A DNA stretch of 40,967 nucleotides from Reclinomonas americana ATCC 50394 (GCA_048213135.1 PS015434.1:6153-47119); one strand, 5' to 3'; positions 6,301 through 39,219 are shown, counted from the stretch's first letter. Program-made: numbers and translations. The notes: generated by a model not told the origin, from the letters alone.

Positions 6301-8286
6301 ACGGTGAGACACAAAAAAGGAACAAGAACGCAACGAGTCCAAGAACTGCGAGATGAAATCCAACAGCGGGCGCATTGTCGACTTCTTTGGTCGATTGGCC
6401 AACATCGACTCCAGCACCGCACAAGCGGTTTTGCGCACAGACCGCACCTCATTAGCGACATCTGTGTGCACAGCACACGATTTGGTGAGATCGGGGAGGA
6501 ACAAGCACTGAGGCACCAGCACCACAAACCATATTCAATGTGCAAGTAATCGTCGGGGGCCTCACGCCACATGGCCAGTGCCTCGTCGGTGAGCAACACC
6601 AACGGGAGGACGTACTCTGTCATGAATGTCAGGGCGTGTGGCCGGATAATATCCCACGCGTCAGCAAGAGTGATGCTGGGGGAGGGGAAGGAGGCGACGA
6701 TCATGAGTGATGCGCCCTCTCCACATAATGGGGAGAAATGAGAATAGCTACTCACGCGCACTCGAAAAAGGTGCATGCGTGCACCACAATCGGGTCCGAC
6801 ACCGAGCTCGGGTTGTCTCTCCGCAGCTGCAAGATGTGCAAGAATGCCTCCGTGCACGGCGCCGAGCACGACTCCAAGAACCGGGCTGAAAAGAGATTGA
6901 TTCGTACATCCTTGCTCATTGTTGTCATGCGACCATGTCTGTGCGGCACACAAACGCGCAATGATGAGCGATTGACGTCCATTGACACGATACACGTAAC
7001 GTACACACAGACCTGATAAAGTACTGCGACAATGTGTGTGCCGCCGCCCTCTTCATCGTCCATATGATGTGCTCGCTGCACACGTCTGGGTGCGTGTTGC
7101 CCGGGAATGTCGGCGGCGTGAGATACAACACACGGACCAGCAACTCGACCACGGCATTCATAATCTCGAATCTCTCCAAAAAGACCGGCGGCAATTCGCA
7201 CTGGTGGTGGTGGCGCGAGGTTGAGTATCAGTCACCGCGGCAACGATGACAAAGGCATGAGGCACTCACCGTGGTCATGTACTGCACAATCTTCAAGCAC
7301 AGCCACGTGTATGTGGCGCGCGCGGCCACCACCGGCGGCAGGCTCGGTGCGTACTCTGCGCATGTCAACGACTGCGTGAGCTGCCGGAGAAACACTTCCG
7401 CAGCACAGCCACCAACAAACCTTTTCCGTTCAGTTCCGCCTCCAGCTCCGACACGGTGGTCTGCAGGAACCCGCCAAACACCTCAATAGACTCGGCGCAA
7501 TAGGCCACCAGTGGGTGACGCTCATCCTTGCGCTTCTTTCTACAGATTCAAGGGGAAGCAAAGTGAGTGTATGCGGGGGAGGAAGATGGAGTAAAAGAGG
7601 GAGACGACCCACCTGTACACATAGCAGAACTGCTTCGCCAAGAGCAGACCCGCATGCACCTCCTCCGGATCGCTGCTCGCCAACAAGCGCGAGATATCGG
7701 CGAGGAGCGTGGGAATGCCGCTCTTCTTCTGCACCACTTCCACACAGTACAACAGCTGATTCCGCACAATCGGCAGCGCCACGACAGTCGCCGCCACAAT
7801 GTGCTGCAAGAAGTAGTGCTTGTCCTCGTCGTTCAGTGGCGCGTACAACTCCGGAACGCCAGTCCATCTGTGGCCACAGCACAGAGAGAGAGAGGCAGTT
7901 GAGCAAGAGGGAGATGAGGTGGGACACGTGAGAGGGTGAGAGTGGGGAGAGAGCGGAAGAGAGTACGGATCACATTTGAGCTCTTTCACGCACCTGAAGC
8001 GGATGAGGTTCTTCAGTTGCACCGAGGCCGCTTGCCGCACATGCGGCTCATACTGCGCGTCCAGTGACACCTCAAAGAGCACTTGAATGAAGCCAGCCGA
8101 GTTGAACAAGTGCTACCAACACACAAACACAAACAAAAGCGTGTGTCTGCACATGCGCACATGCCCATGCCCACACACCAGACGCTCACTCACCTGCTCC
8201 ACATACTCCGCCGCGCGCTGTCTCTCCGCCGCATCCGCCAGCGCCGAGTACGACAAGTGCAAAAGATGGGCAAGCTCCGCGCTCAT
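3308..8286 (-). CDS. IPO7: Importin-7/8 (RanBP7/SAD2-like) importin-beta family protein, about 20 introns
   Basis: MSAELAHLLHLSYS...ERQRAAEYVEQ; IBN_N motif VRQAASVQLKNLIRF; WTMKRAAAHTLSQYFIR; HVYPELSSDVVYLRAR; LMSEFESDELV; CRGKIDECIPKFL; DCFYYDPTLAL; acidic tail YTSPLDEVD; TGA at 3308-3310. Confidence 0.9.
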
Positions 8287-14535: not shown

Positions 14536-17500
14536 AATCTTACACGGCACACACCTGTGAAAAACTGAAAGTTGCCAGAGTTGTACGCTGCCGCCAGCGT
14601 CTTCTTGCCAGAGTACATGCAGTACGATGTGCCGCACACATTGCTGGTCTCGGCGTTCGCTGCCGTGGCCGGAACGACGGCCTGCCAGCCATGTGTGAAT
14701 ACTAAAGCTTACGTTTCCCAACTAAACATACAGGGAGACATGGAAAACACCTTCAGTTGACAAACTGGCATGCCTGTCGCATTTGACGCCGCAGCAGCGT
14801 CCAAGAACACCCACGCCACACATGCAGCATCGCCGTCGCATTTCATGCAGCACGCACTCGCGCTATTCACGTAATGCACGACATAGACATTACCCGGACG
14901 ATCCACGTTCTCCAACTGACACACCTCCATGCCGACTGCGTAGTGCAAAGGTGATAAGTGTGTGCAATGAGAGTTGAACAGCGAGAGAGAGAGAGAGAGC
15001 AAACCTGGTGGGTCAAATACAGAACCGCGCTGCACACACGGACAACTCGAACTCGGCGATGCAGCTGTACCAAAAACGTGCGGACATCAAAATGGTGGTG
15101 CTTTGCTGCTACTACTGCTGCATACGAGTCCACCACGCACCAGAAGAAAGCACAAACGACTTGGTCATCGACGCTGCTGGCGTGCCACTGTCGGTACTGC
15201 GAATCGTCACTCGCAGCTGCCGGTTGACCAGACCAGCCGTCTGCACTTGCAACTGCGATCCAGTAATAGTGAACGCCGTGGCATTTTCGCCACCCGCGAT
15301 CGAGTACGTGAATGTCTGGCCAGCGTTCGCGTCGGTGGTCGACAGTATGCCCACTACGGCGTTAATTGTGGTCGGAACGGCGTACGTGAAGCTTGAAAGC
15401 ACAATATCGGCGGGGGCAGCATTTCCTGCAAAAAATGCAAGTGCAATGAGAGATTACGTATTACCCTCCCGCCCCCCACTCCCCCCAAAAAAGTCGCAAG
15501 CGCAGCACACGCACCAATGGACAACGGCCCAAGCGACTGATACGCACTGCCGGATGCCCAACGGACGCACAGTGTGTACGTACCGACGGCGGCGCCAGCG
15601 GCATTCACGGAGAGATTGACACTTGCGGCGCTTACAAACGTCGCACTCACGCTGGTCGACGCAATCACTGCTGGCGACGCGGCCGTGCAATCAGTCGACA
15701 CAACGAATGCCGCCGCGTCGGCATTGGTGTTGCCCATGCCGCCGCCGGTGAGTGCAATGGCCTGAGCGGCGGCCGCTGAAATTGTCGACACGGACATGGT
15801 GGCTTGTACTGCGCGCGGAGAGAGCAGCAACAGAACTGAGACCGCAGGAGAGAGAGAGAGAGAGGCGCGCAAACGGCCGCAGGCGCAGAAAAGATATACC
15901 TGCACAATTACCACGATCGCTCACAAGTTCGCTGACAGCATAATACATCTAGTACGTCGCCGACGACAACTACCGTCTACACTGCTCTGTACACATTCCC
16001 CTTCACTGTCGTCGCTATTCCTTTCATAGGACACCTCTAGCAAACACTGGGGAACACTTAGAAATGTGCTGCAACGCGGTTCCCCTCCAACGACTGTGTT
16101 CTTCCACATTGCTACAAACATAGACTCGCCATGCCTTCGCGATCCTCTCCCACATGCAATTTTTTGCTAGTACTTGCACTTGATCTAGATATGCACCGTC
16201 TCCTCTTCTGTGACTCACCGACAGTCACCGACCCAGCCAGCACATACACCCCTGCCGGCCGATCTCGAATGCACATGTTGTATGTGCCAGCTGCCGCACT
16301 CGAAGCGTCGAGAAGCACTCGCATACTGCTGCTGCTGGCGAGAACAATCGACTGATACGTCGCCACGACCACCAGTGTACCGTAGCAGTTCTGTGATGGA
16401 ACAATATATAGTTGCTTGTTGTTGAGTGACAGCGTACTGGTGTGTGCATCTCTGCCCAACGCGACTCACCGCATTCGAAGACAGCACTGCTGCTGCCGAG
16501 TCGCCGCTGGTGGACAAGTCGAAAAAATTGGCTGCACGACGTGACGGCGGTAGACGATCAGCAATCAGATAGTGAGAAGAACTGCAAAGCAAAGAACACA
16601 ACTTCCGCTAAGTGCCACTAGCTGCCACGTTCGCCGATGAATGATAGTCGGCGAAACTGCCGATACAGTCATGGTAGCTGTGCGCGAGGCCACTACAAGT
16701 TAGCAAGCTTGTGTGTATGTATCTAGGAGACACCAATAGAGATCTATTTCAAGAGACACTGCTGAAAGCATGAATTGCTGTAGTATACGCACACGATACA
16801 CAAATATACACGCGCTTCTCGCGATGATCGCGTAGTCTGTGCTCTCTCCTGCCTCCTCTCCACTCACCACGTGCCGTGACCAACGGCTGTGGAAGTTCGA
16901 TAAACGAACTCGTCGATAATAACGGCATGTGACACACTGCCATTGGAGCCAACAACGCCCCCGTCCCAGCCGCAACACTTGCCACCGTCAATGTACCACT
17001 CGTCAAACTGCTGGCACCAACGCTGATCAGTGGCGTGGCTGCAGCACTGCAGTCGTTCGTCGGCAAAGTGCACGTCAAGCTCGACATAAACGCGGTGCGC
17101 TCCGCCATAAAGTTGTTCAGCACCTGTGCTGCCGTCAGTGAATTGCTGTGGATACGCAGCCGTGCGATCGTCAGCGAGCCTCGCAGAGTCGCCTCCACAG
17201 TGCCATTGCCGTTGTACTGCGATCCCAACGTGATTGGCGCAGAGGCTGAGATGTTCGGGTTCTTGACAGCTGAACTGGCCAGAAAACCATCGGCGTACAC
17301 TCGTTCTGTTGTTCCGTCGGACGTGAAAACCAAGTGATGCCACGCGCCGGCGCCGGGTACAGAGGACCCCCAAGAAAAATCGTCAGCATAATGAATAACT
17401 GCACCGTACGCAGCGTTGGTGCCGTACACGAATGCAAAGTTGGCAAAATTGGATCGGACACCCCAAGCGACGATAGTCTCCTGCGCCCCAATCACCGGAT

Positions 17501-20096
17501 TCAACACCCATGCTTCGATCGACAGCACAGGACGTACGCCTATCAAGGATGCCGGCGTCGCAACCGACAATGGCATGTATGCCGTGCCGTCAAACTGCAG
17601 ACCACGAACGCCACTCGTCAGCGCCACTGTCACGGTGCTCGCTGTCGCTGTGAAGACGCCACCCAGCAACCCTGCGTTGCTGACCGTGCTGACAGAACCC
17701 AGCGCCAGTCCAGTAGCATCCACCGACACAAGCAGTGAGCCAGCAGTGGTCACAGATATGGCACTGATACCGACGACCCGGGCCGATAGGAACGCGCACT
17801 GCTCCTGTTGGAAGTTGGCCAGCACTTGCGCACCAGTAAGAGTGCCGCTGTGGATACGAATGCGAGCCATGGTGAGTGACGGACGCGCACCGCCCCACGC
17901 CACTGCACTCGAGTCATATTGCGATCCAAGTGTGATCGGCACCGCGTTGCTAATACTTAGCGAGACCTGCACCACTGCATTGGCCAGCACGCCGTCAATG
18001 TACACCCTATCCGTTGTGCCATCCGACGTGTACGTCAACAGATGCCATGCATTCGCTGTCGGCGGACCGCCAGCACCCCACGGTATGTCGCTGTTGAAGT
18101 GAGTCACCGCCCCCCAAGACGAATGAGAACCGAAGCTGAATGAGATACTGCTGAACGGCCAGCGTACGCCCCAAACAACCATCGATTCCTCCGCCTCGAC
18201 ACTCGGATTGTAGACCCACACTTCAATCGTAAACGACGGATTACGGCCAACCAAAGTTGTCGGCGGCGTCGCGACAGAGTGTCTCATGTACGCAACGCCG
18301 TCAAACACGAGCCCACGCATGGCAGACAGCTCCGCTACCGTCACCGTGCCGGCCGCCGTGGTAAACACACCGCCCAGCGTGCCACCATTCGTTACCGTCG
18401 TCAGAGCGCCGAGTGGAAGTGCACTGGAATCGATCGAGACTAGCAGTGAGCCGGCAATCTGCAGCGAGTTCGCTACCACTTTGACCGTGTCGCCGGCGGC
18501 CAGCTGATTGCCGGACACAGTCAAAGAAGTGGCTGTCGACAGTGTCAACACTGACGGTGTTAGAGCCGTGGCACCTACATTCAGCACCGCGACAGCCGGC
18601 AGGCCCGTCACTACTGTAGATGCTGCTTGGTCGGCAAACGTGAATGATGATAGGCTGTACACAGCACTAGACGTATTCGATGCTCCCGTAAAGCCAACCC
18701 ACGCAGAGCTGGCGCCAACAGTTGCCGGAATGTTGACAGTGTACGACTGCGTGGCGGTCGCCAACGTGGTGCTGTCGGTGATTGTGACTGTGAGCGTGGT
18801 GCCGTTATACGTAATGTTGACATTCATCGTGTTGCCGTTCCCGAGAGCGATGCCGTTGGCTGTCAGATCGATCGAGCCGGTGTTGGTCGGTGTGGCACCG
18901 TTGAGATAGAGACCAGTGGAGCTCGTGCCCTCGCCGCTGGTGTCCGCCACGTCAAATTTTACGCACAAACTCGAGCCGACACCGGAATAGCCGAGACTAG
19001 ACCCCCAACCACCAACGCCCAAAGGAGCCTGGTTTTTGATCACAAAACAAACACCTTCGCCACCACCACTCATTCGCAGTGCAAAGCTAGTGGTAAAGTT
19101 CGCGATATTCATCATGCTTGTTGTGAATGCCAAGCCCGGCATAGAACCACCACCAGGGTACAGCAGAATGCCAGCAGCCGAATAACTCGCCACACCGCCC
19201 AGTGTCAGCTGCTGATTCACTTGCAATGCACAAATTGAAGACGCGCCTACCGGACGGCGGCACACAGTGAAGTACGAGTTCACCAGACTGTACGCCACCG
19301 ATACCACCGGCACAGTCATCACCGTGTTCCCAGCGGATACCACGAAAGCAGGAGAGGCGACCACGCTTGTGAACTGCGTAGCAGAGGCGCAGCTCGTGCC
19401 GAACGGCACAAAGCGGATCAAATCAAAGGTGTCGAAACTGGCCCCGGAAACCGTCAGATTCCACATCACGCCCGGGTACAGTGCGACAGGCCCAGTGACA
19501 GCACCCACCGACACAGTCAGCGCACTTATCTGCGTGGGACTGTAGGTGACTTGACTCGAGGGGCTCAAGTATGAAAACGCGAGCACGTCAAAGTTGCCGG
19601 TAACAGCACCAGCACTTGCAGTGAACCCAACCCAGGCCCTACTGGCTCCCATCTGTCCAGGAATATCAACAGCGTACGACTGGGAGGCGGTGGCCAGCGT
19701 TGCTGTATCAGTAATGGTCACAGCGAGCGTGGTACCGTCGTACGTCATGTCGACTTTCATAACGTTGTTGCTGGCCAGAATAACATTGCTCGGCATCAAG
19801 TCCACCGCGCCAGTGCCTGTGGGCGTGGCGCCGTTGAGGTAGAGACCGGTAGATGAGTGGGGAACACCGCCAGAATAGATGTCAAACTTGACACCGACGC
19901 TCGGCGTCAGACCGCAAAAACCAAGGCATCCACCACCAAAGCCGCTGACCGTGGCGCCCATGTTTTGAATGGCAAATGTCATGCCATCTCCGCTGCCCGC
20001 AATGCGCAGGCGAAACGATAACGTGAACTGGGTCACGTCCACCGCGGCTGGAGCAAACACAGAACCAGAGCACCCAATGACGCCAAAGGTGCATAC
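14265..20096 (-). CDS. Large mosaic carbohydrate-binding/adhesion-like protein: 2x L-type (legume-like) lectin, 2x LamG/concanavalin-like, Ig-like segments, cadherin-like, 2x PAN/apple; 5' partial
   Basis: Exon 16868-20096 has two lectin units (GDGMTFAIQN...VGVKFD...TYDGTTLAVTITD...AWVGFTAS) and two LamG-like units (FTIEVWVYNP...WHLLTYTSDGTTDRVYIDG). Short spliced exons follow with a cadherin-like unit (NAAPADIVLS...STTDANAGQTFTYSI) and two PAN-like units (CCMKCDGDAACVAWVF...CQLK; CSVLCSGNSLCGSWTF...CALK). TAG at 14265-14267. Confidence 0.78.
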
Positions 20097-20345
20097 NNNN
20101 NNNNNNNNNNNNNNNNNNNNNNNNNNNNNNNNNNNNNNNNNNNNNNNNNNNNNNNNNNNNNNNNNNNNNNNNNNNNNNNNNNNNNNNNNNNNNNNNNNNN
20201 NNNNNNNNNNNNNNNNNNNNNNNNNNNNNNNNNNNNNNNNNNNNNNNNNNNNNNNNNNNNNNNNNNNNNNNNNNNNNNNNNNNNNNNNNNNNNNNNNNNN
20301 NNNNNNNNNNNNNNNNNNNNNNNNNNNNNNNNCGACGACGACGAC

Positions 20346-20346
<1 letters not shown>

Positions 20347-20416
<70 letters not shown>
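20347..20416. repeat. (CA)n microsatellite
   Basis: About 35 perfect CA units next to the gap, preceded by (GAC)n. Confidence 0.95.
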
Positions 20417-20421
<5 letters not shown>

Positions 20422-20649
20422 CCGCTTATGTGTGGCGGGAAAAATTGAATTTTGCACATGTACAGTGTACAGTAGCGGCCTGGCGAACCATCTGCTAGTA
20501 CACACACGACAGCAGCAGCTGCAGGTGGTGCGCGACAGTACAGCGTGTGGATCTGACACCAGCACTTCTTGCTATCTTGCTGCATTCGCGGTTTCTCTTG
20601 CTGACAAGCCAGCACAAGCAAGACATTTCGACTTTCTTTTGCACTGCAC

Positions 20650-20735
20650 CCGTGATATCTGAGTTTCTGGTGCTCACACGAGATGTTGTTCATCACACGC
20701 ACTGTCTTGTCCTCACTCCCGCTCAGAACGACCAG
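20650..20735 (-). pseudogene. Degenerate single WD40-like repeat
   Basis: LVVLSGSEDKTVRVMNNISCEHQKLRYHG keeps SGSxDKTVRV and a downstream H but lacks the conserved W; it lies downstream of the stop of the WD40 ORF. Confidence 0.4.
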
Positions 20736-20909
20736 TAAATCAATGCTGACTATATAGAAGGCAGCAAGAAAACATAACGACGTGACTACATGAGAGAGGC
20801 CACCCCTCACCAGTACAGCCAAGGTGGATCATCGAGGTGCCGATGCACCACGACTCCCGCCTCCTCGACCACGAAACAACGCAGCACCATCTCCGGCAGA
20901 CACCGCGAA

Positions 20910-26432: not shown

Positions 26433-27430
26433 ATGCCTGCGCGATGGCAAGTGCAAGTGGAGATTGTTGCGTTTCTCTCTTTGTTGTGCGCGCGTGTCTT
26501 CCGCAACTGAGCGCGCGCACGCACACGGGCGCAGGTTGAGGCGCGTGAGCTCAAAGGCCGCGACCGCTCAGGCACAAGGTTTGCACTTTCTTGTCTCTCA
26601 CTCACTCACTTTCACTCACTCTCTTACACACGCGCGCGGCACTCCAGCGACCCTGTCATCAAAGTCAAAGTCGGCGACAAGTCGCAGCGTACAAAGACCG
26701 TGAAGAAAGTGCGTGCATGCACAAACTCCGCCACTCACTCTCTGCCTCTCACTCACACACACACACGTGTGCGTGCGTGCATAGGTCAACTCTGCTGTGT
26801 ATGACCACCTCATGTTCTTTGAGATTGACTCGGACTTGCGTGAGACGCGATGTTTGATTCAGGTTGAGTGTTGCATGCGTGCATTCAGCTGTTTGCATTC
26901 TTCCTCAACAAGTCCTTACCGATTTGGTGACACACAGTGCTTTGATGCCAACACCATCACTCGTGACGTGCTCATTGGTCAGTTTGAGGTGTCGCTGGAC
27001 TACATCTATGGCGAGCCCAATCATGAAGTGTGGCGACGATGGGTGCGTGTTGCATGATTCGCCGCTCTTCCCTCCTTCCGTTGTCATTACTCCCTGGTCA
27101 TTTGCAGTCTCCCTCTCCTGCTCTACTTCTTCTCCTTCTTCTTCATCTTCTTCTCCTTGCTCTCCCGTCGCCCAGTCATCTGCGATCGCCTTCTTGTTCT
27201 TGTTCTTCTTATTCTTCTCCTCCGCGTTTCTCTCTCTCTCTCTCTCCAACCCGTTCTCTTGCACATTCCCTCCTTCCGTTGTCATCCTCTTTCTCAGTCC
27301 CTAGTCATCTGCAGGCTTCCTCTCCTGCCCTCCTGCTCTGCTTCTTCTCCTTCTTGTTCTCCTTGCTCTTCCGTCGCCCGGTCTTCCGCGATCGCCTTCT
27401 TGTTCTTCGTTTTCTTCTCCTCCTCCGCGT

Positions 27431-27465
<35 letters not shown>

Positions 27466-30400
27466 CACATTCCCTCCTTCCGTTGTCATCCTCTCTCTTT
27501 ACTCCCTGGTCATCTGCAATCTCCCTCTCCTGCCCTCCTGCTCTACTTTGTCTTCTTCTTCTTCTCCTTGCTCTCCCGTCGCTTGTTCTTGGTTTTCTTC
27601 TCCTCCTCCGCGTGCTCTCTCTCTTGCACATTCCTTCCTTCCGTTGTCATCCTCTCTTTACTCCCTAGTCTTCTTTTTCTCCTCCGCGTGCTTTCTCACC
27701 CATGACTCCCGTGTTATCACCTTCTTTTATGATCTCCCGCATCCCTTTGCCCTTCCTCTCACTGCCTCCCACCCAGGTGGTGCTGCTGGACCCCAAGAAA
27801 CACCAATCCGAAGTGCAGGGCTTTGTCAAGCTGTCGGTCATCGTCATGGGACCTGGGGACACCACCGGTCAGTACACAACAAGTCTCCGTGCTCACTCAC
27901 GCTCCCGTGTTTTGACGTCTCGCGCCCTCCCCGCGCAGCACCGCATCCGGACCTCGACGAGGAAGAGGAGGGCGGGGCGATTGATTCGCTGCAGTCGATG
28001 GTGCTGGCGCCGCCCGATTTTCAACGGCAGGGCGCCGAGTTGCTGGTGCGCGTGTACCGAGCCGAGAATTTGCCAAAGATGGACTCTTGTTGCGTCTGCC
28101 ATGCCACCCTCTCCCTCCTCCTTCCGTTCAATTCCTCACCCCATGCGTAAATCTAGTCGGCAAGATCGATGGATATGTGGCCGTCAATTTCGCCGGCAAC
28201 CCCACTCTCAAGACCGCCATCAAGAAGAACGAGTACAACCCGGTGTGGAACCAGGAGCTCGTGCTGCCCGTGTGGCTGCCGAACTTGAGCGACAAGATCG
28301 AGATTCTCATTCGCGACTGGGATCGCATGAACAAGGACGACACCATCTCGCGGCAGTACTTCACCTTTAGCGACGTGCAGCTGGAGGGGTTCACACCGCG
28401 CTGGATCAACCTGTATGGCGCGCCGCTTAACCCGTCCTTCCGCGACAAGGCAGTGCGCTGCATGCGCTCTGGCAAGGCCGAGCCCACCGAGTACCACGGC
28501 CGTGTGCTGCTGGCCATGACGCACCGTGCGTCGGATAATCCCCTGGTAACTTCCATCTCTTTCTCTCTCTTCGATCTCCTCCACCTCCTCATCAACTCTC
28601 TTTCCTTTGATGCAGTTCGGCGGACCAAACAACATTGCTCCGTGCGAACTGCCGCGCACCCGTGAGTACGTGCTGCGACTGGATCTGTACCAGGGCACAG
28701 ATTTTCCGGCCAATCGCAGTCAGTCGGTGCGCGTCGGCGTCACCTGGGGACAGCACGTGCTGAAGGGCAAGGCCGTCGGCATTCGCAACGGATGTGCGTT
28801 GTGTCATTTGTGTACTCTCTTTCATGACACACTCTCTTACTTCCGGCCATCTGCCGCAGCGTACCCGTGGTACGAGTCATTGCAGGAGATTCGCGCCACA
28901 TTCCCGCACACCATTGACCATGTGCCAGATATTGTTGCGTGACTGACCGTTGCACTTCATCACCTCTGCGTTCCCCTGACCGCGCACGCGAATGGAACAG
29001 ATCCTGTACTTTTCCATCAAAGGCTTTGGCACCACGTCGCGTATCGGTTACTTGCGCTACAGGGCTGCGTTGCGTCAAACTTGCCGCGTTTGCGTCTCTC
29101 TGCATTCTCTTTGTTTCTCATCTCGTGGCAGCGATGTGGTGGGGTTCGACAAGCCGCCAGAGTGGCACTGTGTGACGGCGAATCCCTTGGCGGCCGCGTA
29201 CGAAAAAGATCGCATCCCCGGATTTGCTCTCATCCGGTCCGTGTGCTTGTCTCTCTCGCGTTCGTCCCTTTCGTCATATACTCACGTCTGCGTGCGTTCG
29301 TAGCCTGGCGTTTGGACCGGCCGAAAAGGCGCCTGTTCCCCGACCGCCCATTGCACCGCCGAGGTTCGGTCGTTTCCAGCTGCGCGCGCACGTTTACCAG
29401 GCTCGTGACCTACCGGCCGCGGACGACACGGGCACCAGCGATCCGTACTGCCGCGTAATCTTTGGCTCCAAGGTGAGGGGCCTGCACATCCTTTCGACTC
29501 GGACCACGCTTGTTTTCTCATCATGATGCAGAGTGCGGAAACGGGTGTTCGTTTCGCCACCAACTACCCTCTGTGGTACGAGTCGCTCAGTCTGGATGTG
29601 GAGATTCCCATTGACATGAACTACGCGCCGCGGATTGTGCTGCAGGTGCGCTGTTGGAACGACTCGGTCTCGTGTCTCCTCCCATTTTCCTGCTCATTTC
29701 GCGCGCACTGCAGGTGTGGGACCGCGACAGCACCCTGGACCCTGACGACATGATTGGGCGCTGTGACATTCCGGCCAACACCGCCGGCAAAGGGTGGCCC
29801 GGCGATCCCAAGTGGTACGAGTTGTACATGAATGACCCGAACGACACCATGGGTGGCGTTCTTGCGTCGTTCCAGTTGATTCCACGCGAGGAGGCGGCTC
29901 GCATGCCACCGCCCGGCTCTATCAAGCCGCGCACACAGCCGTGCGTCTTTGAGATCTCGGCCATTGGCCTGCGCAGTCTGCTGCCGGCCGCCGACGGGAG
30001 CGGCAGCAAGTCGCGGGCCAAGAACCCGCGCATCGAGGTCAGCGGTCTCATGCCTTTAATGTCTCACTCCTCCTCTGACTCGTCGCGGCACAGTTCGATT
30101 GCGGAGACTCGAATCGTGTGGTGTCGTCGGCACGTTGCTCGCAACCGACTCCCGAGAATCCCAACCATCTGGAGGTGTGTGTGTGTGTGTATGTCAGAGC
30201 ATGGTTGTCTGCGTGCCTGTGCATGAATCACCAATGCTCGTGTCGGGCAGGCCGTCTACCTCGAGTGCGAGTTGCCTCTGAACGCGCTCTTTGCACCGGC
30301 CATCAATGTCCGTGTGTTTGACGTCGGCGGTCTTCTCGGCGGCGACCGACTCGTCGGTGCCTCGTCCATCTCGGTGGCACCATACATGCCGTGGTCGAAT

Positions 30401-32869
30401 CTCGATATTCCCAAGGTCAGTTCTTCCCTTGTTAGTTCGCCTCCAATGCTTTTCCCGCAGACCCTTCATTCTCCCATCACAGGAGAGCCTGCCGCCGCCC
30501 TTTGATGGTGATATTCCCGGCGCCGCCGGTCTGCCCGGATTTGATGACGACGTGGTGTCGGCAGTGCACCAGATCGAGATCGTGGATCCCATTCCCGAGG
30601 ATCTGCGCGCCTGCAACGAGGTTGTTGGCGATGAAATGCATTTCATCACCGCGGGCGAGCCGAAGCGCACGCTGCCGGAGGTGGACGACACGCACTTGGG
30701 TGGTTTCGAGAGCACGGCAGCCGACGCACTGGCCGGTCGCAAGACTGTAAAGGTGGAGCTGGAGCACACCTTCAAGCAGCTGCCCTTTGACGAGTATCGC
30801 CTCTATCGGTTGGTGGATTGTGCTGGGCTAATTCGTTTCGCTGTATTACCGCACTGACTCGCGATGCGTGCACCGTCCAGCGGCACCACTCGGCAGCAGG
30901 GAGGCTACTTTACGAAACTATGGGCCACCATGGAGAAGAGAGGCGTGCAGAACCCCAAGCACAACAGGTTGCATTCATGTCTGCGTGCTTCTCATCGCTG
31001 CATCATCATCATCTCATGTCGGCGTGTGGCATCGCAGCGGCAAGTTCAAGGGCCGTTTCCGTGTCATTCCGGCGGAGCAGTTGCGCGGTTTGCGTGATCG
31101 CGCCGAAAGCACTGTGTCTGCTGCTGCTCCGGTCGTCCCATCGACCACAATCACCCCGTTTGACATTTTCGACGATCCACGACCCGGCAGTGGCCTTCCG
31201 TCGTTCACTGCTGGTGCCGCTGCGGCAGCTCTGGCCGCCGTCAGTGCGCCTCGCGTGCCGCCCGTGCGAGCGCCCTCTGGCAGCTTCACCGCCGCAGCTG
31301 TGGCAACTGTTCCGCCACCGGCGCCTGTGCCGGCACCGGCTCCGACAGAGACCGTCGAGTTGATCACTAGCCGTTTCGTCCTCCACTCCGCGCCCACGCG
31401 TGTTGCCTCTTGGTGTGAGCTCACCACGGTGTTGCGCAGAGGAGCTTCGTCGCATGTACACGTCACGTGATTTTGTGGTTCGCGTGCATGTGGTGCGCGG
31501 TCGACAGCTCGTACCAAAGGACAGCAACGGCAAGAGCGATCCGTACCTGGTGTTCCGCACGGGCAGCGATCGCCGAGCCAGCGCCAAGTTCATTTCGTGC
31601 GAGCCCGACGTCATCAAGGCGACTCTGGCGCCCGACTTTTGGACCAGCCAGGAGCTGCGTGCGACCATTCCAGGTGACTCGCTGCACATCGAGTGCTACG
31701 ATTGGGACGCTGTCGGCGACCACGACTTGATCGGCGCAACTATTGTCGACCTGGAAAATCGTCTCTTCAGCGAGGAGTGGCAGGCGTTGGAGGCCAAGCC
31801 GTTGGAGCAGCGCACATTGTGGGTGCCGACGTCCAGCTTCCCGCAAGGTCGCCTGGAGCTTGCCATCGACATTCTCACGCCGGAACAGGCGGCAGCGCAG
31901 CCGTTTGTTCGTCTGCACAAGCCGGAGGTTCGCAAGCACGAGCTGCGCGTGATTGTGTGGAACACGGTTTGTCGCATGCGAAAGCAGTGCCACTGCCACT
32001 GGATCTGATAATGTGTTGCACCACAGGAGGACGTTGTCTTCAAGGACGCGAACATGAGTGATCAAATTCTGCGTGCAACCGCACTGTGGAACAACGAGAA
32101 GCTGAAGACGGACACGAACTGGCGCTCGATGGATGGTACGGGCAGGGCGTGTCCTCTGCGCTGATGTGCGCAAGGTTCATTGATGTTGCTGCACAGGCAA
32201 GGGCTTCTTCAACTGGCGCTGGGTCTTCAAGGACGTGGAGATCCCGTGCAAGAATCCGCGCTTGCGAGTGCAGATCTACGATCGTGACATTTTCAAGCCG
32301 AACGATTCGATTGCCGAGTCTGTTCTCAACCTGCGGCCGCTGTTCCGCAAGGTCTACAACCAGCGAGCGCGGCAGGAGATCCCACGACAGTGGATCTCCA
32401 TGACTGTTGCGCATTTCGTCTGCCTGCTGTGCTTGTTTGCCTCGTGCTCACACTTCCATGTCGTCACACACAGCACCCCAACTTCCAGGGCGTGCAGGGC
32501 AAGGTGGAGCTGACGGTGGAGTTGCTGACGGCCGACGAGGCAATGCGCTTCCCCGGTGAGTGGCTGCAATATGATCTCAGTATTTGCTCGGCATGTGCGC
32601 TCATCTCTTGTCAACAGCCGGGCAAGGTCGCGATCCGCCCAACGAGAACCCGCATCTCGACGACCCGCCTCGGCCACCAACCAGTTTTGCGCCGTGGCGA
32701 GTGGACAAGTACGCACAGAATTTCTGGATGAAGTACAAGGTGTGTGTTGTTTATCTTGGCGTTGTTCTCTGTTGCACATCGTTCTCAACGACTTCCACAG
32801 AAACGCTTGATTCTTATCGGAATCGCCGTCCTCGCCCTGTTCATCTGCCTCCTCTTCCTGTTCATCTAA
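26433..32869 (+). CDS. Ferlin-family multi-C2 tail-anchored protein, paralogue A (25 introns by my reconstruction; no DysF seen)
   Basis: MPARWQVQVEI/VEARELKGRDRSGTSDPV; VYRAENLPKMDSFGKIDGYV...NPVWNQEL; FTPRWINLYGAP...EYHGRVLL; LRAHVYQARDLPAADDTGTSDPY; RGRQLVPKDSNGKSDPY...IGATIVDLENR; ELRVIVWNT...TDTNWRSMDGKGFFNWRWVF; GKVELTVELLT...NENPHLDDPPRP; TM LILIGIAVLALFICLLFLFI then TAA. Confidence 0.92.
27069..27690. repeat. Pyrimidine-rich minisatellite (about 4 units of 160-205 bp) in the 734-nt ferlin-A intron 27043-27776
   Basis: Core (CTCTTGCACAT)TCCYTCCTTCCGTTGTCAT...TCCCTRGTC recurs near 27069, 27256, 27461 and 27621; units contain CTCCTCCGCGT and (CT)n of variable length. Confidence 0.85.
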
Positions 32870-32953
32870 CCGGTGATCAGAAGTAGAATAAAACCGCATA
32901 CACTTTTTTGGTCGCACGCACAAGCACACACACAGACATGAGTCTCTCTCTCT

Positions 32954-34570
32954 CTACAGGAGCACAAAAATGAGAACAATGGCCAAGATGATGATGCCGG
33001 CAATGATGAGCTTTGTCTGTACATGGTCATGGTACGCCGTGAGCAACATGCACAACCTCGAAAGAACACGCTGTAAGGAGAGTCAACAAACCTTGTACTT
33101 GAGCCACCTGCAGCAGACAAGCAGAGGAAAGAGACAAGTTAGCACATGAAAAGATGCGGGAAAGAAGCGTGGCACTGCACTGGCGACGCAACCATGTCTG
33201 CGCGTACTTGTCCACTCGCCACGGAGCAAAACTGGTTGCCGGTCGTGGCGGGTCGTCGAGGTGCTGTGGTGTGATGCAAAAAATGCACAATGTGAGCGAC
33301 AATCGGGGAATGCAATCGGCAAGCACGAGATGGCGACGTACAGGGTTCTCGTTCGGAGCCTTGCGCGCCTCGCCGGCCGGATAGCGACGTGCCTCGTCTG
33401 CAAAGCGACGCAGAGTTGAGCATACATCACACACGCCACACACACGTAGCACGCATATGAAAATCAAGTACCGTCGGTCAACAGCTCCACTGTGAGTTCG
33501 ACCTTGCCTTGCACACCGGTGAAATTAGGGTGCTGGCAGCGCTCGGTAAGTCAATCGACGCAATCCTGCGTCACTCGAAATGAAAAACACACACATACCG
33601 TCATGGAGATGAACTGGCGCGGAATCTCCTGTCGTGCACGTTGATTGTACACCTGCAAGCAAGTCACCGTCAGCATGCCAATAAACAGGAGAAATGACGA
33701 CGCTGCATGTGCAACATACCCGGCGGAAGAGCGGTCTCAGGTTGAGCATGGCCTCGGCGATGCTGTCGTTCGGCTTGAAGATATCGCGATCGTAAATCTG
33801 AAACAGAGAACAGTGAGTATCTGGGGGAGAGAGAGTGCAAAGAAAAAATATCACTGGTGGTGGCACACACCTGAATGCGGACGCGGGGATTCGCATTGGG
33901 GATCTCCACGTTCTTGAACACCCAGCGCCAGTTGAAGAATCCCTTGCCTGGAGATACAAAGAATGAGTGACAGGGACCAGAAAAAAAGGAATGCCGGGGC
34001 GACGCGCACCATCCATGGAACGCCAGTTGGTGTCGGTGTCGTGCCTATCGTTGTTCCACATGGAGGTGCCGACCAGCTTGATGTCACTCATTTCCTGTGT
34101 GGGGCACATGCAGTGGATGAGTGAGCTGCTGTGGGCATCAACAGTTTGCACCATTTAGTAAGGCGACGCAACAGCATCCTTGAAGACGACATCGGACTGG
34201 TGACACGAACAGCAGGCATAGCATATAAGTAAATCATGCGCATGTGGGAGCCACATCATTCACACTCGTCGCGTACCGTGTTCCACACGATGATGCGCAG
34301 TTCGTGCATGCGGACCTCTGGCTTGTGCAACTGCTGGAACGGAATGTGCGCTGCCTGTTCCACCGTGTAAATGTCGACGGCCAACTCCAGGCGACCTTGC
34401 GGGAACTTGGACTCGGTTGTCCACAGCGTGCGGTGCTCCAGAGGCTTCGGCTCCAGGCCCTGCCAGTAGGGCGAGAAGATGCGGTTCTCCAAGTCGATTG
34501 TTGTCGTGCCAATGAGCTCGTCCGCTCCCACCGTGTCCCGGTCGTAAACATCAATGTACAGGTTATCGCC

Positions 34571-34607
<37 letters not shown>

Positions 34608-37600
34608 GACAACACACACGGGTACAACGGAGTGCGCGATCTACAACGCACCGGGAAGCGTAGCGCGCAGCTCGCGACTCGTCCAAAAGTCCGGAGCCAG
34701 AGTCTGCTCAATGGTTTCGGCCTTGCATGTGACAAACTTCTCTCCGGGAGTCTTCGCCGCACCGCAGCGGAACACGAGGTAGGGATCGCTCTTGCCGGTG
34801 CGGTCTTTCGGCACAAGCTGGCGACCACGCACAACGTGCACGCGAACAACGTATTCGCGCGTTTGATACAACGCTTGCAGGTCCTCTGCGAACGGCAAGT
34901 GCCGTGAGGATACGCGGCATGCAGTGACCATTGACAAACACAAGTGAAAAACACACCAGTGGTCATCAGCGTAATTGGTTCAGTCGACTCCTCTGGCATG
35001 CCGTCGACCTGCAGGTGCACGCCCGATGGGCCCTCGTTTTCCAAGTCGGCATCAAACGCTTGCGAAGGGCTGCTCGGCTCCGGCGGTCGAATATCCGCGA
35101 GAGAAGTCGAGCGAACAGTGCCCAGATGTGGTGGTAGTTGACGGATGCGCTCCACTGGCACCACACGGAAGTGTCCCTGTGCGAGGATCACACGAGGGTG
35201 AGTGCATGGAGAGGCGATGAGGGGCAACAGCAAAGATGCTAGATGTACATACCTTGAAACGACCGCTGCAGGTGGACGCGAGCATCGAAAGTGAGAAGCG
35301 AAAAGCACTGATGAAAGAAACACACTTCCCGGGTGGTACTCACCAGATGCGCTTGGCGCTCTCAGGATCGCGATCGACCTTCTTGCTCCACATCTTGGTG
35401 AAGAAACCACCCGACTGGCGGGTGCTTCCACGGTACAGCTTGAATGCGTCGAACGGCAACTCGGGGAAATCGTGCTCCAGCTCGTGCTTCACCAGCGCAC
35501 GACCGGAGAGCACATCGGCACCATTGCCTTCGAAACCGCCGAGCAGCTGATCGTCGACCTCAGGGATGGTGCGCTCGGGTTCGCCGCGCGTGCGGAACTT
35601 GAACTCGTGTGCAAACTGGATGTGTGTGACGACGAGTCAGAACATGTCCCGCGGCAAGCACACGACCATGACAAGCACGCGCCAACCTCCTCGTTACAGG
35701 TGCGGAGGTCGTCAGGAATGGGATCGACAATCTCCTGCACCTCACCCACTCGGATCATGTCATCGTCGAAGCCAGGCAGATCACGAGCACCGGGAATGGG
35801 CGCATCAAAGAACTCGACAATGTTGTCCTTTGGAATCTCCATGTTTGACCACGGCATGTAGGGCGCAATCGGAATGGATGTCGAGCCAAGCAGACGCCGT
35901 CTGCCAAACATGCCCGCATCGTGGACACGCACATTGACAGCCGGAGTATACAGCGGATTCAGTGGCAATTCGCATTCCAGATACACGACCTGCGCGCGGC
36001 CATGGTCAAACATGGAGTCAAACAAAAAGCGAAAACAAGAGCACTCTATCTCTCACCTCGAGGTGGTTGGGGTTCTCGGGACTCGGTGTGTTGCACGAGC
36101 GCGTCTGCATCATGGGGAAGACAGAGCTGCCGGCGTCAAACTGCACACAACAACGACCACAGAGTCAGGGCCACGAGCACGCAGTCGCTTGGTGCTAGCT
36201 GGGAGACTCACGTCGATGCGCGTGGTATTCGGGCGCGATTTGGTGCCATTCTCCTCGCCAGCAGGAATCAGCTCACGCAGACCGACGGCCTGAATCTCAA
36301 AGATGCACGGTCGCATTTGCGGTTTGATGGTGGGCGGCAGCGGAACACGAGCGGCCTCCTCGGCCGGGATTAGCTGGAACGAGGCCAGCACCTCACCCTC
36401 GGTGACCGAGTTGTCGTCCATGTACAGCTTGTACCATTGCGGATCACCGGGCCATCGCTTGCCCAGCTTCTCGGGTGCCACCTCGGCACGACCCAGCAGA
36501 TCGTCGGGATCCAGACCGGGGTCCACATCGTACACCTGCAAAACAGCGAAGACTTTCAGGGAAGGTGCGAGAGAAAAATACTCCACTGCCGCTGTGACGA
36601 AACTTGCAATACCACACGCGGCGCAAAGTTGAAATCGGTGGGGATTTCGACATTGAATGCGAGCGTCTCGTACCACAGCGGGAAGTTGGTCACGTAGCGT
36701 GGCGTGGTTTTCTTGGACTGCATCGCGGTTGTTGTCAGTGAAAGCACGCACTATGGGAGAATCAAGAACACGTGCGCGCACCTGACTGCCGAATGTCACT
36801 TTGCAGTACGGATCACTCGTGCCGGATTCGTCGCCAGCCGGCAAGTTGCGTGCCTGGTAAATGTGGGCACGCAGCTGATACCGACCAAGACGAGGGGGCG
36901 CAATGGGCGGCCGCGGAATCGGCGCCTGATCGGCAACACCAAAGTCAAGGCTGTGCAGATGGGGCGGTGAGTTAGCGCACAGAGCAACTCAACAAAGCAA
37001 AATGAATAAACAGCTCACCGGAAGAGGCAGAAACCAGGTGGTTGTTCCTTGTCGTAGGCGGCCGACATTTTGTTGGCAACAATCGGTTGCCACTGCGCAA
37101 TGTGGCCCCATCCAAACACCTCTCTGCCGCAGCGTACCGCAAAGCACACATGAGCGCAACAATAAGCTTCACGAGGCGACAGCCAGCCAGCAACTCAACT
37201 CTGCCGTGTATCGCAGATAACCAATCTCTGACTTGGCGCCAAAACCCTTGATGTAGAAGCGGATAATCTGCACCGAAAAAGTGTGAGAGAGAGTCACCGC
37301 GAGGGCACCACAACACCGACGAGTCCTGCGCAACAATGTCGGGAATAGAGGAGCGATCGGCCGGATACTCGACACGCATGTCGGGGATCTGCTCGTACCA
37401 CGTGTAGGCGCCGTTGCGCACCGACACCGCCTTGCTCATGAACGAGTAGGGGCCGATCGAGATCTGCGCCTGCACGGCCTGACTGCGGTTGGCCGGGAAA
37501 TCGGCGCCCTGATACAAGTCGAAGCGCAAAATGTACTGCTTGGTCGGTGGCAAGGCACACGGATCGAGTCTGCTCGGCGCGTTGGAAGTCTATCGCATCC

Positions 37601-39219
37601 AGCAATCAGTCAAGTGTGCGAGATGACTGACTGCAGCATTCAATCATCTGCGACGACTGCACCTGTGGGTTGTCCTTGGCCGCCACCTTCATGGCCAGCA
37701 AGATGCGACCGTGGTACTCAGTGGGCTCGGCCTTGCCCTTGCGCAGCAGATTGTGGGCCTTGTCACGGAACGACGGTTCCAGCGGCACGCCGTACAGGTT
37801 CACCCAGCGCGGGTTCAGACCGCCCTCCAACTGCACATCGGAGAAGCGGAAAAACATGCGAGCAATGGTCTCGTCCTTGGTGCCGCGATCCCAATCCTGC
37901 GGGGCGACAGAATGTCAGACGAGTGGAGCGTGGAGAGAGAGCACATTTGAAGACACAAACAGAATACTCACTCGAACAATGACTTCGATCTTGTCGCTGA
38001 GGTTCGGCAGCCACACCTGGAATTGCAGCTCGTTATTCCACAGTGGAGTCAGTGTGCTCTTCATGATTTCGGTCCGGCGCTCGGCGTTGCCGGCGGTGAC
38101 CACAGCCACATACGGATCGCACTTGCCGACTGCGCACGGATGATATTCAAAAAAACTTCCGAGTGGACCAGGGCATGGTGGCACAACGCAACAAGTGTCC
38201 ATCTTCGGCATGTCTTCACCGCGGTACACGCGCACGTACAGCTCGGCACCCTGTCGCTGCATACCGGGCGGCATGAGTACGTACTGCTGCAGTGATTGGA
38301 GGGAGCCTTCCTCCTCCGCATCGACTTCCGGTGCCGGTTCTGCACGCAACGCACAATCGCACACGTAAGAAGCAATGAAAAGGGAATGGAAGCAGGGAGG
38401 TTGGTTGGATTACCGATGGTGTCACCGGGTCCAGCGACGGTGATGGAGACACGGACGTAGCCCTGAATCTCATTGCCGTGCTTCTTGGTCTCCATAATCG
38501 CCACCCACGTGCGCCAAATCTGATGGTTCGGCGCCGTGTACACGTAGCTGAGATCGATTTCGAACTGGCCTGCAAACGGCAAGCAACACAGCAGTCAGCA
38601 TCGGCAAGAGAGAGAGAGAGAGAGAGAGAGGAAGGAAGACGAAAAGAAAGAGACGACGGAGGANNNNNNNNNNNNNNNNNNNNNNNNNNNNNNNNNNNNN
38701 NNNNNNNNNNNNNNNNNNNNNNNNNNNNNNNNNNNNNNNNNNNNNNNNNNNNNNNNNNNNNNNNNNNNNNNNNNNNNNNNNNNNNNNNNNNNNNNNNNNN
38801 NNNNNNNNNNNNNNNNNNNNNNNNNNNNNNNNNNNNNNNNNNNNNNNNNNNNNNNNNNNNNNNNNNNNNNNNNNNNNNNNNNNNNNNNNCAAACCCACCG
38901 ATGAGCTCATTGCGCGTAAAGGTGTTGGCGTCGAACACACGAATCACACACGGCGTCTCCTCCAGTCCCGTATCAATCTGGAAAAACATGAGATGGTCCC
39001 ACACGACATTGGCCGACTTCTTTGTGCCTTTGGTCTTCTGCGTCTGCTTGCCCACAGTCACACTGGCCACGGGATCCGAAGTGCCGCTCCGATCGCGACC
39101 TTTCAACTCCCGAGCCTCCAGCTATCATGCATGATCATTCAGCAATCGGGGCTCATGTCACCACAGAAGATCAAGACAGAAAGAGAACTCACCAGCTCAA
39201 CCTGCACCTGGTACGGCAT
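32954..39219 (-). CDS. Ferlin-family multi-C2 tail-anchored protein, paralogue B (28 introns by my reconstruction; one intron contains a gap)
   Basis: MPYQVQVEL/LEARELKGRDRSGTSDPV; VYRGEDMPKMDTFGKCDPYV; LNPRWVNLYGVP...EYHGRILL; LRAHIYQARNLPAGDESGTSDPY; RGRQLVPKDRTGKSDPY...IGTTTIDLENR; ELRIIVWNT; TM LIIAGIIILAIVLIFVLL then TAG at 32954-32956. Collinear with paralogue A throughout. Confidence 0.92.
34574..34602. repeat. (AG)n microsatellite forming the polypyrimidine tract of a ferlin-B intron
   Basis: About 14 AG units; on the minus strand (CT)n lies just upstream of the ATCAG acceptor. Confidence 0.85.

Follow-up and report, generated by a model that had tools for sequence, protein, structure and literature searches.

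What reads the start of an intron in which the last base of the exon appears to be free? This question is raised by two ferlin genes in a 40,967-nucleotide (nt) stretch of DNA from Reclinomonas americana ATCC 50394 (GCA_048213135.1 PS015434.1:6153-47119), the whole of which is called the window here. The window is eukaryotic DNA of about 55% G+C, with many short introns and ten runs of N. Introns in these genes appear to begin in two ways, both of the GT-AG kind. Most 5' splice sites (donors) resemble G/GTRNGT, where the slash marks the exon-intron junction and the G before it occupies position -1. A second class, defined as GTT[G/T][C/A]G and termed GTT-type, mostly does without the -1 G. The original prediction, made by comparing the two ferlins, held that homologous introns switch donor class together with the -1 base, and that the switch is compensatory, the first intron base (+1 G) taking over the pairing with U1 small nuclear RNA (snRNA) that is normally made by -1 G. 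The switch itself was confirmed. As for its explanation, the organism would use two GT-AG intron starts, with the GTT-type read by U1 one nucleotide out of register; judged from sequence, this is the best, if unproven, of several readings, and we give it about even credence.

The two ferlin genes are convergent paralogs. The coding sequence (CDS) of ferlin A lies on the plus strand (26433-32869) and encodes 1364 amino acids (aa), with 25 introns and a TAA stop codon; that of ferlin B lies on the minus strand (39219-32954) and encodes 1327 aa, with 28 introns, a TAG stop codon and an N gap inside intron B2. Their products share 61% identity (810 of 1323 aligned residues). The 53 introns in total fall at 17 positions common to both genes, 8 found in A only and 11 found in B only. 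Among the ferlins of other protists, with which both products align end to end, the nearest are P0002, a 1281-aa transcriptome-derived protein, and P0003, a Blattamonas protein. Ferlin A is collinear with both. The predicted products of A and B are justifiably called ferlins, because a C2 domain was found on three single exons of ferlin A (expectation values E = 2e-13, 2e-12 and 8e-3) and because both proteins align end to end with the protist ferlin P0002, which itself has C2 (four matched stretches), FerI and Ferlin_C. Both also have hydrophobic C-terminal tails, as judged by eye. The nearest database relatives were 44-47% identical over the query exon, and none of the matches (27 among 820 candidates) was a protein of the organism itself.

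GTT-type donors account for 13 of the 53 ferlin donors, comprising nine GTTGCG, two GTTTCG and two GTTGAG. As the original prediction held, donor class and the -1 base are associated. The -1 G is missing from 11 of the 13 GTT-type donors and from only 5 of the 40 other ferlin donors (Fisher's exact test, p = 3.5e-6). When common positions with identical states in both paralogs were counted once, the association persisted, with 8 GTT-type donors lacking and 2 carrying -1 G, as compared to 5 and 26 among the others (p = 4.5e-4).

The 17 common positions allow the two copies of an intron to be compared directly. Four of these positions switch donor class and five switch between G and another base at -1, and all four class switches fall inside those five (hypergeometric p = 0.0021). 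These are the four switches that had been predicted. In the case of A1/B1, ATT/GTTGCGT in ferlin A (26466-26472; all A donors are on the plus strand) is paired with the canonical CTG/GTGAGTT in ferlin B (39186-39192; all B donors are on the minus strand). At A14/B11, the canonical copy is CAG/GTGCGCT in A (29646-29652) and the GTT-type copy is CAA/GTTTCGT in B (36597-36603). At A20/B17, GCC/GTTTCGT in A (31373-31379) is paired with CTG/GTGTGTT in B (34950-34956), and at A23/B24, ACT/GTTGCGC in A (32406-32412) is paired with ACG/GTATGTG in B (33592-33598). In each pair, the GTT-type copy is the one without -1 G. The base difference at -1 is synonymous in two of the four pairs, with CAG versus CAA at A14/B11 and ACG versus ACT at A23/B24.

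Three further common positions lack -1 G in both copies, and in all three both donors are GTT-type, again as predicted. These are A7/B4 (CTT/GTTGCGT in both, at 28089-28095 and 38186-38192), A10/B7 (ATT/GTTGCGT at 28934-28940 and ATT/GTTGCGC at 37328-37334) and A11/B8 (TGC/GTTGCGT at 29069-29075 and AGA/GTTGAGT at 37193-37199). A single exception had been noted, the canonical donor B12, GAC/GTGAGTC (36205-36211), whose partner A15 reads GAG/GTCAGC. This donor is the sole exception at common positions, but six more were found at unshared introns. Four of the six are canonical donors without -1 G (A3, AAA/GTGCGT; A9, GAT/GTGCGT; B5, CGA/GTGAGT; B26, CCT/GTACGT). The other two are GTT-type donors with -1 G, A4 in an A-only intron (CAG/GTTGAGT, 26863-26869) and B27 in a B-only intron (ATG/GTTGCGT, 33186-33192), and these two could be intermediates between the classes. 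The remaining GTT-type donor, B20, also belongs to a B-only intron and has T at -1 (GCT/GTTGCGT, 34166-34172).

The value of these counts depends on where the junctions were placed. Introns were placed by a purpose-written protein-to-DNA spliced aligner that knows only GT..AG, the reading frame and BLOSUM62. The outside ferlins P0002 and P0003 served as guides for the ferlin introns, followed by hand curation and then by a re-test against the paralog. Junction placement is independent of any donor consensus. Guided by the finished protein of the paralog, the aligner recovered 25 of 25 A introns and 28 of 28 B introns and added one extra intron in A, the segment 31094-31270. Alternative GT donors within 75 nt were scored for all 53 introns, and every one of them lowered the score against the paralog, by 4-81 units overall and by 5-32 units for the GTT-type donors.

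The outside guides alone chose 10 of the 13 GTT-type donors. Those of A4 (26863), A7 (28089), A10 (28934), A11 (29069), A23 (32406), B4 (38192), B7 (37334), B8 (37199) and B11 (36603) were chosen with both guides, and two were chosen with a single guide, B20 (34172) with P0002 only and B27 (33192) with P0003 only. A1 (26466) and A20 (31373) were missed by the outside-guide aligner, the guides being without matching sequence there. For A1, the best alternative scored 19 units lower against the paralog and 18 lower against P0002. P0002 spans junctions without a gap, as in A7, where KMDS/FGKIDGY aligns with KMDTFGKCDGY, and at WISMT/HPNFQG, which aligns with WVTMTHPAATG. A20 is the least secure donor: its best alternative lies just 5 units lower against the paralog, in a region that the outside guide leaves uncovered. 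A25 has in-frame alternative donors 6 and 9 nt downstream, and B27 has the alternative CCA/GTGCAGT 12 nt downstream, which costs 14 units against the paralog and 3 against P0002.

An iterative spliced alignment guided by the paralog only was dropped, having converged on shared read-through artefacts that included GC "donors" at 28098 and 38174. Right after their common GTTGCGT donor, introns A7 and B4 have the sequence TGCCA..(A)TGCC in common (28096-28115 and 38165-38185), and this likeness misled the paralog-guided aligner into reading through. Over their whole interiors, the likeness of the two introns was not significant (z = 1.5). A donor-agnostic de novo gene finder reproduced only 14 of the 25 A introns and 14 of the 28 B introns exactly, and was too inaccurate for extending the donor table to the other genes.

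Does the pattern hold in a gene other than the ferlins? A gene of the importin-beta family lies at about 3.3-8.3 kilobases on the minus strand, with an IBN_N domain and roughly 20 short introns. A word-indexed protein search with the importin N-terminal block gave no match; a HMMER search gave 4 matches, and the 2 full-length ones, P0031 and P0032, were used as guides (274 of 997 and 275 of 1000 aligned residues identical). Because these guides are only about 27% identical to the gene, agreement was demanded, and only 14 introns were kept, those on which at least 2 of 3 donor-agnostic methods (the two guides and the de novo finder) agreed. Both GTT-type donors among the 14 lack -1 G. One is CTC/GTTGCGT (6328-6334, minus strand), placed by 2 of the 3 methods with a gap-free junction against P0031, and the other is CGA/GTTGCGT (6082-6088, minus strand), placed by all 3. 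Among the 12 other donors, 2 lack -1 G, both of them C/GTGAGT. Taken alone, this gene gives p = 0.066. Introns placed by a single method were left uncounted; among them are two further putative GTT-type donors, at 5854 and 3536, neither of which has -1 G. The association of donor class with the -1 base is seen again in this independent gene.

Across the three genes, 67 donors were tabulated, 15 of them GTT-type. The -1 G is present in 2 of the 15 and absent from 13, as compared to 45 and 7 of the 52 others (p = 2.5e-7). GTTGCG makes up 9 of the 13 ferlin GTT-type donors and both of those in the importin-like gene.

The composition of the class suggests a displaced signal. The 34 canonical ferlin donors have -1 G in 29; +3 is G in 21, A in 9 and C in 4; +4 is A in 13, C in 13 and T in 7; +5 is G in 30; and +6 is T in 23 and C in 7. 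In the 13 GTT-type ferlin donors, +4 is G in 11 and T in 2, +5 is C in 11 and A in 2, +6 is G in all 13, and +7 is T in 11 and C in 2. A GTT-type donor thus reads like G/GTGCGT one base later, with T replacing the first intron G. The +6 G belongs to the definition of the class, but +7 was not used to define it. Over the three genes, +7 is T in 13 of 15 GTT-type donors compared to 14 of 45 canonical donors (p = 2e-4), a level no different from that of T at +6 in canonical donors (32 of 45). The 3' ends and branch-like motifs are alike in both classes, and median intron length is 68 nt for the GTT-type and 71 nt for the others.

There are two ways in which these genes do without -1 G. One is a GTT-type donor (13 cases), and the other is a strong canonical donor with +5 G and +6 T. 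The latter was seen in all 7 canonical donors without -1 G, compared to 23 of 38 canonical donors with it. A side observation concerns the third intron position, which is almost always a purine in well-studied eukaryotes. In the ferlins and the importin-like gene it is T in 22 of the 67 tabulated donors, and the splicing machinery here seems unusually tolerant at +3, even in the normal register.

Does T at +3 in itself bring about the loss of -1 G? Six further ferlin donors start with GTT and all have -1 G. Five of these carry +5 G (GTTTGC, GTTGGT, two GTTTGT and GTTGGC), and one, GTTGCA, is without it. Among all GTT-starting donors in the three genes, -1 G accompanies +5 G in all 6 cases but +6 G in only 2 of 15 (p = 5e-4). 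This contrast, the most telling internal control, is made within GTT donors and is immune to any compositional bias against G before GTT.

Such a bias is present in the window. Over both strands of the whole window, G is underrepresented before GTT, at 13% outside the ferlins compared to 22% before other GT dinucleotides. Within the ferlin region, G precedes GTT in 21% of cases. With 2 of 13 in the ferlins and 2 of 15 over the three genes, -1 G in the GTT-type therefore stands at background, which indicates that selection for -1 G has been lost there rather than that G is avoided. Outside the ferlins, G precedes 5 of 51 GTT[GT][CA]G hexamers (53 when a slightly narrower ferlin interval is excluded). 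This count was rejected as support, since G precedes other GTT there in only 13% (Fisher p = 0.66).

How might a donor dispense with the last exon base? In the shifted-register reading, ordinary donors (G/GTRNGT-like) would need G as the last exon base, and the GTT-type (GTTGCGT, more rarely GTTTCGT or GTTGAGT), about one fifth of the donors in the three genes, would carry its conserved G and T one base deeper and leave the last exon base free. The 5' end of U1 would pair one nucleotide off: C9 would face +1 G, A7 would face +3 U, and C4 and A3 would face +6 G and +7 U, respectively. Cleavage would still take place directly before GU. With C9 already engaged by +1 G, a G at the end of the exon would add nothing and would no longer be selected. 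U1 as the reader of these sites is something that we infer, as would be any direction for the change of class.

Watson-Crick pairs were counted against the standard U1 5' end, taken from PMC4856993 as AUACUUACCUG. In the canonical register, the 13 GTT-type ferlin sites form 2-5 pairs (2-4 at all but one of them), and in the shifted register they form 4-6; canonical sites form 5-8 in the canonical register and 1-5 in the shifted one. The shifted register gives the higher count in 12 of the 13 GTT-type sites and an equal count in B4. In the case of B8 (GTTGAGT, with A at -1), the shifted register is also best by energy, at -4.1 kcal/mol compared to +0.3 with a bulge and +7.6 in the canonical register.

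Several points weigh against this reading. Nearest-neighbour energies of GTTGCGT with standard U1 are positive in the canonical register, in the shifted register and with a bulge at +3; for A1, A7 and B20 they range from 2.8 to 6.2, from 3.3 to 6.3 and from 2.7 to 5.6 kcal/mol, respectively. RNAduplex predicted almost no duplex in 8 of the 13 GTT-type sites (+0.5 to +0.7). Shifted T/GTTGCGT forms no more pairs than unshifted T/GTGCGT, so that compensation is not explained by the number of pairs. There is no preference for exon bases that would meet U10 and G11, with A at -1 in 2 of 13 and C at -2 in 3 of 13 GTT-type ferlin donors. The class is also more uniform than a displaced canonical consensus would be, with +4 G and +5 C in 11 of 13 each; at the corresponding positions of the 34 canonical donors, 21 have +3 G and 13 have +4 C. 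In addition, the U1 end that was used may not be that of the host, the junctions of all counted introns were deduced from protein alignment, and all donors come from three genes within a single 41-kb window.

The original explanation is therefore upheld in part. The link between the -1 base and class and the one-base offset both stand, but the proposed takeover of C9 by +1 G is not borne out by the standard-U1 energies of GTTGCGT sites, which are positive, or by the pair count of shifted T/GTTGCGT, which is no higher than that of plain T/GTGCGT. As for compensatory evolution, class and -1 base do change together at four positions; a direction of change would have to come from an outgroup gene structure.

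The energies also bear on who the reader might be. GTTGCGT may be read by something other than the standard U1 end, such as a U1 that has co-evolved with it (for example, with G and C in place of two pseudouridines), a second U1 variant complementary to GUUGCGU or a protein factor. The exon would then have no role, much as in U12-type introns. The class is very uniform and its exon positions are unconstrained. A site read by near-perfect complementarity would be expected to show just such uniformity with a free exon, which keeps a co-evolved or second U1 in contention. Pairing with standard U1 is unfavourable in every register, and +4 G and +5 C are poor partners for the pseudouridines. Co-evolution of snRNA with changed splice signals has been reported for Entamoeba (bioRxiv 10.1101/2022.06.08.495308). 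On the other hand, an Rfam scan of the window gave 0 matches, placing no snRNA within it, and the branch-site-like motifs, 3' ends and lengths of the class are like those of other introns, as given above. To our knowledge, moreover, the U1 5' end is nearly invariant across eukaryotes. That about one fifth of introns form a separate GUUGCGU class with its own reader is a tentative proposal that we consider rather unlikely. Such a reader would be a dedicated U1 variant, or a U1 whose 5' end had departed by co-evolution from the near-universal ACUUACCU. If the proposal were true, such a class would be a third mode of intron recognition beside the U2 and U12 types, with the ferlin copies caught exchanging introns between two modes.

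A somewhat more doubtful explanation keeps standard U1 in place. Here +1 G and +2 U would pair with C8 and A7 as usual, and +3 U would be bulged, or +3 to +5 would form an asymmetric loop, so that +6 G and +7 U meet C4 and A3. The offset of +6 G and +7 T is accounted for equally well in this way. Bulge +3 and asymmetric-loop (+3/+4) registers have been validated in human 5' splice sites, according to the relevant passages of PMC4856993. The bulge energy for GTTGCGT is equal to or slightly better than the shifted one, and for A4 (GTTGAGT), where both shifted and bulged pairing are strong, the bulge is clearly best at -10.5 kcal/mol. A bulge at +3, however, leaves C9 free, so -1 G should stay useful and GTT donors with +5 G and with +6 G should not split at -1. 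They do split, with -1 G near background in the +6 G group, which fits the shift. For B8, the shifted register is better than the bulge by 4.4 kcal/mol.

It is improbable that no special register is involved at all. Short introns might simply tolerate weak donors, and the link at -1 would then arise from a canonical need for G combined with a G-poor background before GTT. The frequency of G before GTT, given above for the ferlin region and for the rest of the window, is matched by the 2 of 13 seen in the GTT-type, and low strength is likewise predicted for some canonical donors that lack -1 G (A9, -1.5 kcal/mol; B26, -1.2 kcal/mol). This account leaves unexplained why one heptamer, with +6 G and +7 T fixed, stands at 13 of 53 junctions, and why, against the same background, every GTT donor with +5 G has -1 G. 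Finally, that the GTT-type donors are gene-modelling artefacts with the real junctions at other nearby sites is very hard to credit, despite the inexact de novo finder and the close alternatives at A20, B27 and A25, since the transcript-derived P0002 runs gap-free across junctions, every alternative GT donor scores worse against the paralog, and chance would not put one heptamer at 13 independently derived junctions.

The interiors of the introns bear on how the heptamer came to be repeated. Among 16 paralogous pairs compared, interiors are not conserved (z at most 2.3; the intron with the N gap has no shared partner), and recent gene conversion was rejected on this basis. Mean local alignment scores of interiors are 8.0 within the GTT-type, 8.2 within canonical introns and 8.3 between classes. 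GTT-type interiors are thus no more alike than those of other introns, and an introner origin was also rejected. With interiors so unlike, the repeated heptamer must be kept by selection and not copied. Since the ferlin duplication, four common introns have changed class, with the last exon base changing each time. Relatives were sought among metagenome contigs as well. A protein-pattern scan with P0001 matched 39 stretches, none of which was confirmed as a relative, and a degenerate DNA pattern of a peptide conserved in both ferlins gave 0 matches.

Some other features of the locus were noted. Only 84 nt (32870-32953) separate the convergent ferlin stop codons, TAA at 32867-32869 and TAG at 32956-32954, and the 3' ends of the two genes must therefore be very short or overlapping. 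Intron A5 (27043-27776) is 734 nt long, ten times the usual size, at a position where ferlin B is without an intron. It consists mostly of a CT-rich 206-nt unit repeated 2.4 times (27089-27582, 84% matches) together with a (CT)16 run. The segment of ferlin A at 31094-31270 is 177 nt long, in frame and free of stop codons, is bounded by G/GTTTGC..AG, encodes an Ala/Pro-rich sequence and is missing from B. It was left uncounted; it may be inserted coding sequence, or else an intron that is retained or optional. Elsewhere in the window, a very long open frame on the minus strand (16752-20828; 1359 codons spanning an N gap) is apparently almost without introns, unlike the intron-dense ferlins. The 1115 of its residues that were tested contain two legume-lectin-like domains and two of the concanavalin-A-like kind (Laminin_G_3).

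The old ferlin paralogs amount to a natural swap experiment, in which class and last exon base change together at four common introns. If the junctions were confirmed and the pattern held genome-wide, the organism would offer a natural system in which to ask how U1 register and cleavage site come to be uncoupled. It would reveal how coding gains the use of the last exon base and would allow a test of whether the U1 5' end can co-evolve. Gene finders trained on GTRAGT-like donors would also misplace roughly one fifth of the donors in this genome. Among the papers listed by a literature search for GUUGCG splice sites and GTTGCG intron donors, none was relevant by title, and we make no claim that the class is unpublished.

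How do the GTT-type donors compare with known systems? U12-type introns share with them a sharply conserved intronic donor motif and free exon bases. The donors here, however, are not /RTATCCTT, and the 3' ends and lengths of their introns are like those of other introns. A conserved U12-type branch site like TCCTTAAC, which would lie 10-15 nt from the 3' end, was not visible in the listed ends of GTT-type introns, nor was any other shared 3' motif. A second comparison is with classical compensation between exon and intron. Burge and Karlin in 1997 and Carmel et al. in 2004 are said to have described how -1 G and +5 G/+6 U depend on each other inside the 5' splice site. The canonical donors without -1 G fit this pattern, being stronger inside the intron (+5 G and +6 T in all seven). 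GTT-type donors are instead weaker in the canonical register, with 2-5 Watson-Crick pairs, and classical compensation therefore does not cover them.

The closest likeness is to unusual U1 registers in human. Shifted and bulge/loop registers have both been validated in human cells, as described in the relevant passages of PMC4856993 and of the review PMC9311317. In the human bulge +3 and asymmetric-loop (+3/+4) sites, +6 G and +7 U pair with C4 and A3, as they would in the donors here, and U is frequent at +3 and +4, as in CAG/GUUUAGU. The human sites keep -1 G paired to C9, however, which the GTT-type class does not (same passages of PMC4856993). Human shifted-register sites (Roca and Krainer 2009, as described by Tan et al. 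2016, PMC4856993) are treated in that source as a special, atypical case. They are GT-AG sites that match U1 poorly in the normal register and better when moved by one, with +1 G opposite C9; the donors here resemble them by pair count, but GTTGCGT sites do not by energy. The model oligonucleotide, ACA/GUCAAGUAUA, is also without -1 G (PMC4856993, in the part that treats these sites). They differ in that a long run of pairs extends out to +8, with measured energies of about -6.5 to -7.6 kcal/mol in the same part of the source. The class described here, which is known from sequence alone, makes up 15 of 67 donors, is a uniform GUUGCGU and has very weak predicted pairing with standard U1. In human, non-canonical U1 registers are known as rare special cases that came to light through minigene experiments, whereas in this organism they may describe a large and sharply defined share of ordinary introns.

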